In this document: positions 2,855-27,276 of the stretch, one piece after another
How positions within the stretch are numbered: position 1 is the stretch's first letter
Layout of the letters: each line of letters opens with the position of its first letter
IMG/VR virus record: IMGVR_UViG_3300001487_000052
Coordinates: 1-37,502 of that record
DNA length: 37,502 bases
Origin: a virus
Taxonomy: Duplodnaviria > Heunggongvirae > Uroviricota > Caudoviricetes
Reading direction: 5' to 3' (one strand)
Notes under the pieces: generated by a model
What the model was told of the DNA's origin: nothing
What the model saw: the letters and a program-made list of their open reading frames with translations, nothing else
Databases searched by the model: none
Translations under genes and position numbers: made by a program

Positions 2855-2880
2855 GAGATAATATTTCTTCTACTCTTCTT
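2847..2880 (+). terminator. Intrinsic terminator after helicase-like gene 1
   Basis: AAGAGTAGGAGA / TCTTCTACTCTT stem followed by a T-rich run. Confidence 0.65.
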
Positions 2881-2916
2881 TCAAATCCTTCTTTCACACT
2901 CTCCACAAACTCAAAA

Positions 2917-2923
2917 CCTTATA
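2917..2923 (+). promoter_or_regulatory. CCTTATA phage promoter motif for the MoxR-VWA operon
   Basis: AAAACCTTATAAGAG, about 50 nt upstream of ATG 2973. The motif recurs at other transcription-unit starts. Confidence 0.55.
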
Positions 2924-2972
2924 AGAGAATATAAAATTAACAAAACATCAAAAAATACAAAAACATTAAAAA

Positions 2973-4848
2973 ATGGCAATTAAAAAGCAAGATTCAATTA
3001 ATGTGAGAATTTTCATGGCTCTCAAGGTTTCTGAGATGTCGAATGTTCCTGCTTTGATCATGTCTAACCCCGGTTTATAACTTAAGCCGCATATAGCAGT
3101 AATGTTATAATGAAAAGTGGGCAAATACGGTGAAGTCTGTGATGATAATACCGTGTTAACTAATGAAATTGCGCAAGGTTCATTAGTAGCGTAGAGCGTA
3201 GGAGGTGAATAAATATAATCCTCCCAAGAGTGTCCACCAGCCTCTAATAATAGGAGGTTGAAAATGTACGCCGAGCAATCATTAATTAAGAAGTGGTTGA
3301 GCTAGGGGATAAAAAGCCCTTAGGATAACAAAACTGGTTGGAAAGACAAGTACTATAGAGATGTACGCAAAACTCAGGAAAGACGAGAAGGGGAGACCTA
3401 TGGATGTTGTAGTTCTTCGTGGTAACTCTGAAAGTCCCGAAGCGATCCATGGCTATGAAACTGTCTCAACCGCACCTGTAAAACCTGGCGAACCTGTTAT
3501 TTCTTCTCATACTCGTCCTTCGTGGATGCAGAGGATTCTTGACAACTATGCGCAGGGTATCAGAACTATCTTGTTTTTGGATGAGCTCACGACGGCCAAT
3601 GAGTATGTACAGGCTGCTTTGTTGATGCTGATTTTTGACAGGAAGTGTGGTGTAGAGAGTTTGCCGCCGATTTCTCATTGTCTTATTGTGGCTGCGGGTA
3701 ACTATATGAACAACCTGACAACCTCTATGACTATGATTTCGCCGGTTCTCAATCGTTTCATGATTTTCAATGTAACTCCCTCTGTTGATGACCTTGGGGA
3801 TTTTCTCTGTAAGTATAAAGGAGCGATGACGAGTGGTAAGATTGTAGACCACTTAGACGAGGTAGAGAAGCAGTTGGAGGCTCTAGACAAACAGGAGCTT
3901 ACGATTAGTGAGACGAATTATAACAAGATCGGAGAGTATTTTGAGAAGTCCATTTCAGAGACTACCCGACTCTTGATGACGAAAGCTGGAAAAATTGATC
4001 TTTCTGTGACTAACCTGAAGGATCTTTATGGTGACGTTGATGATGACGATCCCAATCTTTACGGTTTTCCCACTTTCCGAACCTTGAATTATCTTCGTGA
4101 TATTAGTATTGCCTGTTATAAGTGTTTTGGAAAGCATGGTATTCAGTCCGATAATTTCCGCGCCATGATAAATGGGTTATGTGGTGTAGGTCTTACGAAA
4201 GAAACTAAGGGCTCACAGGTTATTATTAAAACCCATAAAATCGGCGCGGACTATCATGAATCGTTGACTAAGACCGCTGTTGAACTGGATAAATTAGCAA
4301 GCTCCAAACTCCCCGAATATATTGACTATTTTAACGGGATGATTAACACTGCGACTTCCACTGACCGTCCTGCAAAGACTCGTGGTAAATTCAGTACCCC
4401 CGAACTCCAAGCTTTCAAGAATAAGCTGGATGAGATGTGTAAGGATTCGGAGATGAAGAGTATAGAGAAGCCGTTAGAAGCTGATCTTGTTGCTAAGTTA
4501 GGGGATATCTTAAATGATTCTTCTAAGTTTATCCCGACCCTGAAGTATGATACTACTACTGACGGATCTGATCTGAATAAAGCTTTGGCTGATGCTGGAC
4601 TTACTGTAGAGGTTGCTGCTGGTTATGTTGCCACTTGGAATGACTTAACCAGAGCCTACAACATGATGCACAGATTCATTAACCTTGATCAGTGGAATTA
4701 TCCTACCTCAACTAAAGATATCGTCTCCACTCTCGGAAAACAACTGGGAAAGACGGGAATGAAGTTGAAGGCAATGAAGCGTATCATTCAGACTGCTACC
4801 CCGGGGAGTGGAAATCTTATTCCTGAAATTGAATCTATCGTATCGTAA
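2973..4848 (+). CDS. MoxR-like AAA+ ATPase, spliced: exon 1 2973-3074, exon 2 3337-4848 (537 aa)
   Basis: Joining the exons restores Walker A LIMSNPG|VGKTS in frame. Walker B ILFLDELTT, sensor VAAGN and SPVLNRF lie in exon 2. Adjacent to a VWA gene. The ORF-track start at 3361 misses the N-terminus. Confidence 0.88.
3075..3336 (+). ncRNA. Group I intron (262 nt, no internal ORF)
   Basis: 5' exon ends in U, paired U.G with IGS AAGCCG (P1), and the intron ends in G. P3 GTGGGCA/TGTCCAC, P4 ACGGT/ACCGT, P6 CTAATGAA/TTCATTAG, P7 G(A)GCGTA/TACGCC, P7.1 GGAGG/CCTCC, P8 CAGCCTC/GAGGTTG, P9 hairpins CAATCAT/GTGGTTG and CTAGGG/CCCTTAG. Confidence 0.9.
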
Positions 4849-6917
4849 TGAAACGGACAAAAGCTGAATTAGAACTCATTAAAAACTTCATAGACAATAC
4901 CTACTCGCGTTTTGGAATGAGGTTGTTGGTAAATGCTGATAAAGTATATGACCCAACAGACCCAAATTCCGCCTTAGGTTATTGTTTCAAGTATACGGAT
5001 CCTGTTCTTGGGAGTGTTGTATATAAGATTGAGTGCTCTAAGATTGGTATTGAACATACTGATTATAGAGTCTTAATGCATGAATACGGACACATCTACT
5101 TGGGACATCTTGAAGGAATACATGAGGACCTAGATGCTCAAATCTGCCTCACTCTCGATCAATATAGAGAGGAATTAATAGAGGAGATTAATCAGAAGTG
5201 CGGTATAGATTTTGCTGATAAACTTCTGGAGCGTATTATAGATGATCCGCAACTCAATCACAGTCTTCATAATATAGCTATGGACATGGAGGTTAATTCT
5301 AGTGTCTTATCTATAGAGGACCTTGATGAGATGGAGATGGATATAAGTTCTGTGATGCCTAAGTATGAAGAGGAAATGCTTAAGTACTTAGGGGATCATA
5401 CAGAGGACGAAGAGATTAAAAAGCAAATCCAAGACCAGCTAAACAAATACCAGTCTGAGTCTAAGATTAAGCTTATCCATCCTACACGTTATTGGTTAGA
5501 TGAGAATAATCCCTTCCCTGACAACCTGACTTATCCTGAATACCTCCTCCTTATCATCCAGCACCTTGATCAGTTTGTAAAGATGTTGGTTTCGATTAAG
5601 ATGGGAGGAAATGGTGACACTTCTCAGGTTTCACAACAGGATATTCAGGATGCTCTCAATAACATTCTCGATAAACTCCAAGGAAAATCAGAAGCATACA
5701 AGCAAGGATATCGAGATGCTATAAGAGATGCACAACAGAACGGTCAGGGTCAACAGCAAGGTCAGCCCCAGCAAGGACAAGGAAATCCGCAACAAGGAAT
5801 GGGAATGCCTGGTCAAAGTCAAGGTCAGGGTCAACCTACGCCTGGCGGAGGAGCTGGACAGGGGCAACCTCAACAGCAACAGGGAGGTGGTAGTGGTCAA
5901 GGTAATTCTCAAGACCAAGCCGACTATGAACAAGGATACCAAGACGCCCTAAGAGACATGGCCAATGCACAAAACGGTAATGGTCAAGGTCAGGGTCAAG
6001 GAGGTATGCAGAGTCTTTCGGATCTCATGAATGATATGGGTATGACTGATTCTGGAAGTAACGGAAATAGTCAACCTGGAAGTGGGCCTCAAGGATCTAG
6101 TCAACCTGGGGGATCTGGAAAGCCTACGAATGATGGTAGAACAGAGAATCCCTATAAAGGCATGAGAGAGGATCCCACCCAAAATCCCAACTATTCGAAA
6201 GACCATAGAACTGATTCTCGAGATGAAGCAGACAAAAAGCGTGAACTCGGACAGATTCATTCTAAAGGTGGTCTAGGTTGTGGATCTGGTGGTGGTCCTG
6301 GATATACGAGAGAGGTTGAGAAAGACTTGGATGATGTTGAGATGGCACTACAGGAGGTTATGCAAAATGTGAAGAAGAGAGTTGTTAAGATGGCTACTAC
6401 TAAGGACAATATGAAGAACTATAATCGTGGTATCATACGTACTGTTATAGCTCCGAGTTTTAGTAGGAAGATCACGATTTGCAATGAACCTAAAATTGTA
6501 TACCTCATTGACATTTCCGGATCTATGGACACCAGACTTATTGATAGATGCTTAGGAACTATCGCAAGAAGTATGAAAAAGCTCAGTCGTGGTCTTAAGT
6601 ATGATATCATTACCTGGAGCACATGTCTAGGGGAACACATTAGAGACATTGACCCAAGACACCCAATAACAAAGGTATCTGGGGGAGGTGGAACTAGCAT
6701 CGGACGTGGAATTCAATACTTTAAGGACAACTATGGACCTGAAGCTATTCTAGTCATTATATCCGATTTTGAAGACTATCTTGAAGAGTGGCATGCTGTA
6801 GAAAGTACTATGGATAACTACTCTATGTATGGCTTCAACTACGGAAACGGAAGCTGGTATGATAGTTCTAAAATTGACTGGAAAAATCTTAAGGTTCGCA
6901 AATTTAAGGACTATTAA
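4848..6917 (+). CDS. MoxR-associated metallopeptidase-like / VWA domain protein (DUF2201-type architecture)
   Basis: 689 aa. N-terminal HEYGH (HExxH), central Gln/Gly-rich linker, C-terminal MIDAS YLIDISGS, GGGGT and ISDFE. Translationally coupled to MoxR (TAATG). Confidence 0.85.
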   Translation: MKRTKAELELIKNFIDNTYSRFGMRLLVNADKVYDPTDPNSALGYCFKYTDPVLGSVVYKIECSKIGIEHTDYRVLMHEYGHIYLGHLEGIHEDLDAQICLTLDQYREELIEEINQKCGIDFADKLLERIIDDPQLNHSLHNIAMDMEVNSSVLSIEDLDEMEMDISSVMPKYEEEMLKYLGDHTEDEEIKKQIQDQLNKYQSESKIKLIHPTRYWLDENNPFPDNLTYPEYLLLIIQHLDQFVKMLVSIKMGGNGDTSQVSQQDIQDALNNILDKLQGKSEAYKQGYRDAIRDAQQNGQGQQQGQPQQGQGNPQQGMGMPGQSQGQGQPTPGGGAGQGQPQQQQGGGSGQGNSQDQADYEQGYQDALRDMANAQNGNGQGQGQGGMQSLSDLMNDMGMTDSGSNGNSQPGSGPQGSSQPGGSGKPTNDGRTENPYKGMREDPTQNPNYSKDHRTDSRDEADKKRELGQIHSKGGLGCGSGGGPGYTREVEKDLDDVEMALQEVMQNVKKRVVKMATTKDNMKNYNRGIIRTVIAPSFSRKITICNEPKIVYLIDISGSMDTRLIDRCLGTIARSMKKLSRGLKYDIITWSTCLGEHIRDIDPRHPITKVSGGGGTSIGRGIQYFKDNYGPEAILVIISDFEDYLEEWHAVESTMDNYSMYGFNYGNGSWYDSSKIDWKNLKVRKFKDY

Positions 6918-26016: not shown

Positions 26017-27276
26017 ATGAGCCTATTAACAGAAAGATTATTAAATGCACAATACCATAACCACGAAGAAGATTGTTGTTGTGGTGAAGAATGTTGCTGT
26101 CATGATCACGAAGAAAAAGAAATTGAACAGCAGCTTAGTGAGGAAGAAATAGAGAAGATAATTGAGGAGAAGTATAGTGAAAAGGATGAGAAGACGAAGG
26201 AGTTTATAAGAAAAGGCCTAAGAAAGTTTGGAGATAGATTTGATTATAGTAAGTCAATATATACTGGTTATTCAGGAGAGGCTATACTTATTTGTTTAAA
26301 ACACAGCTGTGAGTTCAGTAGGAAAGCCTCTCAATTGGTTCGTCCAAATTATTTAATGAATCCTTGTCCGGAGTGTGCTCATGAAGTTAGACACAAAATA
26401 ATGATACGACGAAACAAGGAGGGTATACCTAGAACTAATAGAACACTAGAATCTTTCCTAGTAGAATTAAAAGAACTAGGCTTAGAAGAAATATATGATC
26501 TATCCCACATAACTGACTATAAAAATGCCATTACTCCGGTTAAGATTATAAATAAGAGCTGTGGTCATGATTTTTATATATCTCCAAATAAATTGCTAGA
26601 AGGATATATAGATTGCCCTATCTGTGCTCATAAAAGGGGATCTAAGTCTAGGGGTATGGGCTTTGAGAGATTTAAAGAAAAAGCCATCTTAAAACACGGA
26701 CCTGATAGATATTTTTATGATTACGAAGAGAATAAGGATTTACTTAACAATCGACAGAAAGTAAAAATAAAATGTAATAAATGCGGACATGTTTTTTGGC
26801 AAGAAGTTTCTTCTCACTTATCTGGAAAGGGCTGCCCTAAGTGTTGTTTCTCAAAGGGGGAAGAAATAGTGGATGCTTATCTTAAGGAAAAAGAAATATT
26901 AATATTAGATAAAACCCCGATCTATGATGTTTCTTCAGTTAGAACATATATTATTCCTGACTTTAGAATTATGTTAGATAACCAAGAGATTTGGATAGAG
27001 TATAATGGGATTCAACATTATAAAGTATCTCTTAATTTTGGAGATAAAAAATCCTCCGCTCAAACTTTTCTTAGTCAGTATACTAGAGATAATGATGAAA
27101 GAGATTACTGTAGTAGAAATGGTATTATTCTAATTGAAATTCCATATACAATAAGTAAGAGGGAAGATATTTATGACTTCTTGGACAAAGTACTGTTCGA
27201 AAAAATAGATCAAAATAGTTTAGTAGACTATAAATCATTGTTTGTATTCCCAAAGGATGAAAACAATAGTACATAA
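26017..27276 (+). mobile_element. Free-standing homing endonuclease-like gene (DUF723-type Zn-finger repeats plus PD-(D/E)xK nuclease)
   Basis: Three repeats of the type EFI.K...FGDRFDYS...C..H....CPEC / CPIC / HLSGKGCPKC; C-terminal IPDF..IWIEYNGIQHY. Confidence 0.75.

Follow-up and report, generated by a model that had tools for sequence, protein, structure and literature searches.

The window analysed here is the whole 37,502-nt stretch at positions 1 to 37,502 of the IMG/VR virus record IMGVR_UViG_3300001487_000052, which belongs to Caudoviricetes. Near its start it carries, on the plus strand, a gene of a MoxR-like AAA+ ATPase. The gene is divided into exon 1 (2973..3074), an insert of 262 nt (3075..3336) and exon 2 (3337..4848). 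We are highly confident that the insert is an active group I intron without an open reading frame (ORF), of the P7.1-bearing and apparently phage IA-like type. The source record is a 101.5-kb virus fragment rated 27% complete, which implies a genome of about 375 kb. The runs containing the record come from bovine and sheep gut samples, and the host is a huge rumen jumbo phage.

Exon 1 consists of 34 codons. It ends with ATG TCT AAC CCC GGT, so that its last residues, MSNPG, form the first half of the Walker A motif. Exon 2 starts with GTT GGA AAG ACA AGT (VGKTS) in frame with the long ORF called from ATG 3361, and encodes the remainder of the AAA+ domain together with a helical C-terminal part of about 330 aa. 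The intron begins with TTATAAC directly after the 5′ splice site at U3074 and ends with AAAACTG, the terminal (omega) G being 3336. Joining of the exons without 3075..3336 gives a 537-aa ORF that reads LIMSNPG/VGKTSTIEMY across the junction (here and below the slash marks the splice point). In the unspliced frame translation stops at the TAA at 3078-3080, leaving a 35-aa peptide. An ORF scan finds no plus-strand ORF of 30 aa or more within 3075-3336.

The boundaries of the intron are exact, as they are set by intron-less alleles of related phages. The allele L001 is 100% identical to the window over 2857-3074, which includes exon 1, and then aligns directly from 3337 on, the gap being precisely 3075..3336. 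L001 itself is doubted as an intron-less DNA allele, since its origin from DNA or RNA is unclear, and the DNA contigs L185 and L189 are used instead. In L185-L187 (bovine metagenome, 90-kb contig) and in L189 (102-kb contig) the DNA is contiguous, the junction is identical and exactly 3075..3336 is absent. The alleles L002/L003, L004 and L005 have the intron at the identical site. A preliminary description of the window, made from its letters alone, had already put the exon ends at 3074 and 3337, with the P-loop rebuilt by removal of 262 nt, and had described an ORF-less intron whose unspliced RNA yields only a 35-aa peptide. The spliced ORF, the ORF scan and the gap in the alignment agree with it, and the intron-less alleles it proposed to look for in related phages exist.

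The fold of the intron, also on the plus strand, was scored in an alignment of 11 related phage introns (A1) against a structure written from the window, which spans P3 to P9.1 with P7 as a pseudoknot. For the 55 pairs scored, 94.7% of the cells pair, versus 34-41% with the partners slid by 1-3 columns. Compensatory changes are found in 38 of these pairs, and none of 500 shuffles matches the observed covariation. The support takes in the P3/P7 pseudoknot. P3 (3117-3123 with 3231-3237) encloses P4 (3127-3131/3150-3154), P5 (3135-3137/3144-3146), P6 (3155-3167/3179-3190) and P7.1 (3201-3205/3220-3224). P6 and P7.1 are both 100% paired, with compensatory changes in 10 of 11 and in 5 of 5 pairs, respectively. 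P7 (span 3194..3272) is built of G3194, the bulged A3195 and 3196-3199 with 3268-3272; it is 100% paired and has 2 covarying pairs. The P8 hairpin (3238-3242 with 3256-3260), P9 (3276-3282/3293-3299) and P9.1 (3302-3308/3317-3323) come from the same alignment. The G3196-C3271 pair of P7 is invariant in 11 of the 11 sequences and A3195 is bulged beside it. A G-C pair next to a bulged A in P7 is the arrangement of the guanosine-binding site of known group I introns, and hence G3196-C3271 is presumably the guanosine-binding pair.

At the 5′ end, P1 (3071-3077 with 3083-3089) places the U3074.G3086 wobble at the splice site. It is assigned from reading of the sequence and from the alignment to the Rfam group I model RF00028, and is retained in L002 and L004. 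The P2 hairpin (3090..3112), capped by the GUAA tetraloop 3099-3102, appears both in the minimum free energy fold, for which z is −5.7, and in the RF00028 alignment; its variation is too low for covariation. P10, between the loop 3078-3082 and GUU 3337-3339, would have merely 2-3 possible pairs and is hence not claimed.

A search of Rfam at gathering thresholds gives no match anywhere in the window. When matches are reported by E-value, the full-length RF00028 model matches 3065..3275 with 32.5 bits (cut-off 50). The E-value is 1.4e-6 when 501 nt are searched and 1e-4 when the search covers the entire window. The group I identity follows from this significant though sub-threshold match taken together with the covariation of the core helices, the U.G splice pair and the terminal G. 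The elements that the preliminary description had read by eye (P1 with its U.G pair, P3, P4, P6, P7 with the bulged A, P7.1, P8, P9 and the terminal G) are borne out by sequence and by the covariation of the 11 introns, and the covariance-model search it proposed gave the full-length match, albeit below the gathering score. The subgroup IA feature is P7.1: one covarying hairpin lies between P7 and the 3′ strand of P3, and a second hairpin is not seen there. The intron DNA is 69-76% identical to introns of the crAss-like phages cr6_1, cr118_1, cr131_1 and cr7_1. Introns of Staphylococcus phages, of Bacillus phage PJN02, of a Leptolyngbya phage and of Clostridioides phages fall in the same range.

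Joined exons in RNA

Six metatranscriptome runs contain part of the window, and three of them (X2, X16 and X19) were aligned, together with the DNA run X1. X1, X2 and X16 come from the same sample, and X19 is a sheep metatranscriptome. Each of these three RNA runs has one contig with the joint of 3074 to 3337 (‘skips 262, TT..TG’). The joint is absent from all contigs of the DNA run X1, where the intron-bearing form has a depth of about 118.

The joint contig of X2 is 360 nt long and consists of 3045-3074 and 3337-3666. It has 0 mismatches to the window and carries the window-type tract at 3339-3354, which is specific for intron-plus alleles. It therefore does not derive from any known intron-less allele and represents the window's own allele after splicing. 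The contig of X16 (2179 nt) has the same joint and the window-type tract in an L189-like background, with differences at 3427, 3428, 3468, 3534 and 3659, and X16 also contains a contig with a variant intron. By its sequence, the X16 joint contig is assigned to a second intron-plus strain in the spliced form. The joint contig of X19 is not taken as evidence of splicing, because its 11 differences in 3337-3900 all equal the intron-less L001 allele; it stems from a phage lacking the intron, as a transcript or as DNA. Thus precise excision of the intron and ligation of the exons take place in RNA. The preliminary description had tied its case to the junction CCCGGT-GTTGGA in RNA and to a covariance-model hit, and the junction is present in the RNA contigs.

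Two further contigs of X2 concern the precursor and the excised intron. One spans the unspliced 5′ splice site (3045-3105). In the other (record 24, 83 nt, depth 6) 3284-3336 is joined directly to 3076-3105, which is suggestive of an intron circle junction lacking U3075. Group I ribozymes are known to form truncated circles in a side reaction.

Allele distribution and probable mobility

Among close alleles the intron is patchily present, and immediately beyond the insertion site there is a block of synonymous differences at 3339..3354 (plus strand) between intron-plus and intron-minus alleles, a candidate co-conversion or homing-site tract. Over 2900-3549, L185-L187 depart from the window at 7 sites, all of which lie within 3339-3354. 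There they read GTA GGC AAA ACG TCT ACA, versus GTT GGA AAG ACA AGT ACT in the window; the changes are all synonymous, including the AGT/TCT serine switch. L189 has six of the seven changes, is identical over 2900-3338 and shows further differences from 3366, and L001 has three changes in the same 16 nt. The window's tract is found in the intron-plus L002, which is about 88% identical overall, whereas intron-less alleles at 94-97% identity lack it. Homing driven by an endonuclease is expected to leave co-conversion of flanking markers behind (PMC3984707).

The intron is also more conserved than the exons, with 94.7, 86.7 and 86.0% identity between alleles whose exon 2 identity is 73.6, 73.3 and 68.9%. 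A single 90% protein cluster includes contiguous proteins of 537 aa and truncated ones of 495 aa, and the longest contigs that carry them measure 156 and 154 kb, respectively. More distant relatives lack the intron: it is found in 0 of 55 IMG/VR loci, most of them on contigs of 250-400 kb. These 55 were obtained with an alignment query; a query with the single protein gave no relatives. On the basis of the synonymous block and of the higher conservation of the intron, we infer that it is mobile, or recently was so, at the DNA level between alleles of co-infecting phages.

As for the route, an intron-encoded homing endonuclease is absent, with no plus-strand ORF of at least 30 aa in 3075-3336. 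Related introns in other genes bear LAGLIDADG genes. Since the intron has no endonuclease gene of its own, its movement would rely on an endonuclease supplied in trans or on other routes, such as plain recombination or reverse splicing. A free-standing gene like that of L004 may be the source of such an enzyme. In L004 an extra ORF of 297 aa (1671-2564), absent from the window, separates exon 1 from the helicase-like gene upstream. It matches the homing-endonuclease PHROGs phrog_559, 9084 and 7140 (E 1.5e-23 to 4e-11) and its end precedes exon 1 by 48 nt and the insertion site by about 150 nt. The window also has a free-standing endonuclease-like ORF of 419 aa far downstream (26017-27276, plus strand; phrog_559, E 8e-49; Pfam DUF4379 treble-clef zinc finger). 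It was considered as the L004 enzyme acting in trans and was set aside, the two sharing a weak local match alone (E 3e-4).

It could be argued that the intron splices but is now immobile and inherited vertically, so that the patchiness arose by occasional precise loss, when recombination took place with a relative free of the intron or with a spliced copy. The block at 3339-3354 would then be due to selection, acting on bases of the exon that assist the ribozyme through P10 or other contacts, and not to co-conversion. The absence of an endonuclease gene from the intron and from the window's locus is in line with this, and so is the single copy of the intron family in the 101.5-kb record, where the family model R1 finds no second one. 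All four intron-plus alleles moreover have G as the first base of exon 2 and GGA as its second codon. However, P10 accounts for at most 3 bases of a 16-nt block, and between alleles the intron is much more conserved than the exon, with 94.7% against 73.6% identity. The sharing of the tract with L002, rather than with the closer intron-less alleles, and the homing-endonuclease-like ORF beside exon 1 in L004 speak against it as well. We consider this alternative unlikely and prefer an intron that still moves, or recently moved, between alleles.

Proposed splicing pathway and the host ATPase

We suggest that the intron follows the standard group I pathway, starting from its transcription within the ATPase mRNA of the phage. 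The RNA would fold into the P1-P9.1 core. A free guanosine would bind in P7 (G3196-C3271, beside the bulged A3195) and attack after U3074, the base that forms the U.G wobble of P1. The guanosine site would next be taken by the terminal G3336, and the 5′ exon would attack after this base. This would join CCCGGU to GUUGGA and restore the Walker A motif SNPGVGKTS. The excised intron may then form a circle, with G3336 attacking between U3075 and U3076. Without splicing, translation would end after 35 residues.

The position of the intron raises the question of control. Splicing might be a regulated switch, responding to the GTP level, to translation or to a phage or host factor, in which case the intron would serve gene control and not be a neutral parasite. 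The spliced and the unspliced form (3045-3105) both have contigs in one RNA run, ribosomes reading on in frame would meet a stop 4 nt inside the intron and terminate near P1, and the P-loop position makes the ATPase product strictly dependent on splicing. On the other hand, near-identical phages lack the intron, which is thus dispensable, the unspliced signal may be DNA or ordinary precursor, and beyond the standard core there is neither a sensor element nor an extra domain. We therefore regard a regulatory role as very improbable. The preliminary description had stated that splicing gates the ATPase; this holds in the trivial sense that the P-loop requires splicing, and finds no support in the regulatory sense. 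It is scarcely credible that the intron of the window allele does not splice at all, with the gene dead or giving a Walker-A-less 495-aa product from ATG 3361 and the joined contigs coming from intron-less strains: rumen samples commonly hold such strains, the X19 joint contig demonstrably comes from this type and contigs are unable to quantify splicing, but the X2 joint contig equals the window at every base over 360 nt, the intron-plus-specific tract included, the DNA run X1 of that sample, with a depth of about 118, lacks the joined form, the core pairs and the G-binding pair are all intact, and the exons are under purifying selection, because alleles differ at the junction by synonymous changes alone.

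Several points nevertheless weigh against an active and mobile intron at 3075..3336. The RF00028 score of 32.5 bits is below the Rfam gathering score of 50, and the search at the gathering threshold returns nothing. The RNA evidence consists of assembled contigs rather than raw reads and comes from two runs of one sample, and DNA can be present in RNA libraries. The X19 joint, which matches L001 at all 11 variant positions, is uninformative on splicing. The circle junction is a single 83-nt contig of depth 6 and may be an artefact of reverse transcription or of assembly. Self-splicing independent of proteins is a property that we attribute to this intron by analogy with its class. The endonuclease gene is absent at the window's own locus, which makes the route of mobility conjectural, and structural constraint could be behind part of the high conservation of the intron.

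The spliced Walker A motif, SNPGVGKTS, is that of an AAA+ protein. Across 45 homologues there is no change at P19, G20, G22, K23, D102 and E103, which cover Walker A (GxxGxGK[ST]) and Walker B (hhhhDE). The AAA_5 profile (cut-off 22) scores 22.3 for protein P0001, 21.7 for P0003 and 31.3 for the 43%-identical P0017, and the bpMoxR profile scores 19.8, below its cut-off of 27. Exon 2 alone has no match in Pfam, and a PDB sequence search with P0001 gives no match either. A 39%-identical homologue is labelled ‘MoxR-like ATPase’ in nr. The structure model has a pLDDT of 86, and a fold search with it ranks AAA+ cores of MCM proteins first. Its top 50 also includes the MoxR-type 2r44 (TMt 0.44) and NorQ of the NorQD complex 9qhd (TMt 0.46), so that MCM and MoxR/NorQ are not separated.

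The adjacent gene (4848..6917, plus strand) overlaps the ATPase stop and encodes a protein with a VWA domain (PF05762 VWA_CoxE, 35.3 bits versus a cut-off of 26.4). The gene pair is kept in all relatives, and a VWA protein is the usual partner of MoxR. The middle of the VWA gene (5742-6100) is a Gln/Gly-rich region of low complexity with several indels of 12-30 nt relative to L001; elsewhere there are point changes alone. It is reasonable to call the host gene a MoxR-like AAA+ ATPase, strict family membership being left aside, because AAA_5 scores at its threshold, the neighbour is a VWA_CoxE gene and the fold matches MoxR/NorQ as well as MCM. The preliminary description's MoxR AAA+ ATPase is thus upheld as a MoxR-like AAA+ protein with both Walker motifs and a VWA_CoxE partner.

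The intron also affects the annotation of the gene. Homologues of exon 2 fall into two groups, namely contiguous proteins of 523-540 aa (MSNPG-VGKT) and truncated ones of 495-499 aa that start with MYAKLRK. Database calls from intron-bearing alleles are of the second kind and lack Walker A, as was anticipated from the sequence alone. In the window the IMG gene call within 3361-4848 has 482 aa (P0133); it is shorter than the 495-aa ORF from ATG 3361 and misses the whole P-loop and more. Public calls include many such P-loop-less fragments of 482-499 aa, which would be read as inactive ATPases, and the correct product has 537 aa.

Related introns at Walker A motifs and known systems

In three relatives the intron splits the Walker A motif of another protein. 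The junction is GTKGTG/KTV (in longer form GTKGTG/KTVMAK) in an ATPase of cr6_1, GISGSG/KSS in a DnaB-like helicase of cr118_1 and GGGGMG/KSW in a RecD-like helicase of PJN02. A scan of IMG/VR for the conserved 3′ end of the family gave at least 110 copies (L075-L184). Among the matches listed, 44 have a lysine codon as the first of the 3′ exon, 14 have K[TS] there and 5 have KVGKTT, and a clean [AG]xxxxG/K[ST] junction was rebuilt for at least 7 copies. Other recurrent 3′ exons among these matches are KEQAASITIAKIEE, KPWYLFPGSIV and EEPLPNGGSCLLGSF. In X1 and X19, loose ends at 3333-3337 run from the 3′ end of the intron into different exons, which read KTIAAKLLCN and KTRILLLK, so that in these rumen samples sister introns, too, are followed by the K-T of P-loop-like sequences.

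A universal P-loop rule for the family was rejected, as relatives also occur in DNA polymerase, primase-polymerase, terL, ribonucleotide-reductase-like and structural genes. Judged from these sequences, occupation of Walker A would be a tendency of the family and not a rule. We tentatively suggest, as a possibility that we rate below even, that the intron lineage prefers Walker A DNA of unrelated P-loop NTPases (MoxR-like, ATP_43b, DnaB-like, RecD-like and others), with the usual insertion after a glycine GGT codon and before AAR ACN (G/K[TS]). If true, this would be the RNA-level counterpart of the well-known P-loop inteins. The introns might then spread among non-homologous genes via the guide sequence and/or LAGLIDADG endonucleases that recognise a near-universal P-loop coding string, and recurrent use of Walker A by one lineage could explain jumps between unrelated genes.

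The source record also has a group I intron of another kind outside the window, at 52215-52370 of the record (G000, plus strand; 1501-1656 of L016). It matches RF00028 with 40.6 bits (E 2.4e-10), below the cut-off, and follows a 166-aa ORF ending in VIMDAPLDK. It belongs to a different family, because model R1 does not match it.

The intron of the window is real and its interpretation is right, and such introns are already abundant in large gut phages. The principles of group I intron biology are unchanged by the finding. Its computational case is unusually complete, with exact boundaries, covariation, an in vivo junction, a probable circle, sister alleles and a short conversion tract. It indicates that ORF-less group I introns are active and probably still moving among huge rumen phages. 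The main practical value is the correct annotation of a gene stored as P-loop-less fragments, and the main lead is the recurrent use of Walker A.

The classical phage introns, those of T4 td, nrdB and sunY, of SPO1 and of Twort, belong to subgroup IA2 and interrupt conserved motifs of essential enzymes. Like the window's intron they have a P7.1 extension and a stop codon soon past the 5′ splice site. Unlike them, the window has a single hairpin (P7.1) between P7 and the 3′ strand of P3, and the class of the host gene differs.

The abundance of such introns is documented for the ‘Jug’ jumbo gut phages, for which 2513 group I introns in 139 genomes are reported, averaging about 206 nt, with confirmation of 37 of 76 introns by metatranscriptome junction reads (PMC12880540). 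According to this work and to the study of crAss-like phages (PMC7886860), the introns of these phages resemble that of the window in being small, often ORF-less and located in essential genes, which they fragment so that gene callers emit pieces. As described there, the phages are large, Bacteroidales-type gut phages, and the window's record is a piece of a comparably huge phage. The hosts named are terL, nrdD, DNA polymerase, the major capsid protein, primase and ATP_43b, the last among the typical intron hosts (Yutin et al. 2021, PMC7886860), whereas the host in the window is MoxR-like. ‘MoxR’ has 0 occurrences in the main text of PMC12880540, whose supplementary tables may still list it. 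Jug-type orthologues of the window's ATPase gene are intron-free. A literature search for a link between group I introns and MoxR found no such paper. This agrees with the preliminary description, to which a MoxR host was unfamiliar; the novelty is modest, because Walker A hosts of the ATP_43b, DnaB-like and RecD-like types are known.

In collaborative (trans) homing an ORF-less intron is served by a free-standing endonuclease, as in psbA of cyanophage S-PM2 (PMC3984707). The locus is similar in its ORF-less intron at a conserved site, in the endonuclease-like gene about 150 nt away in L004 and in the co-conversion-like tract. It differs in that the window locus is without such a gene, and cutting of the site by the L004 protein is hypothetical.

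The closest counterpart is the intron of cr6_1 (NC_055894) in an ATPase gene of the ATP_43b type (gp44/gp42). It is about 75-76% identical in nucleotides over the ribozyme core, shares the 3′ end GATAACAAAAYTG and likewise splits an AAA+ Walker A after a GGT codon. It differs in having a LAGLIDADG gene inside and in its splice point, which lies two codons further (G/K versus G/VGK in the window), as well as in the ATPase family and in the phage order (Crassvirales). The introns of cr118_1 and PJN02 are of the same family as that of the window, with 69-72% identity, and both split Walker A at G/K. Their hosts have unrelated P-loop folds (RecA-like and SF1 helicases), and the PJN02 intron, like that of cr6_1, carries a LAGLIDADG gene.

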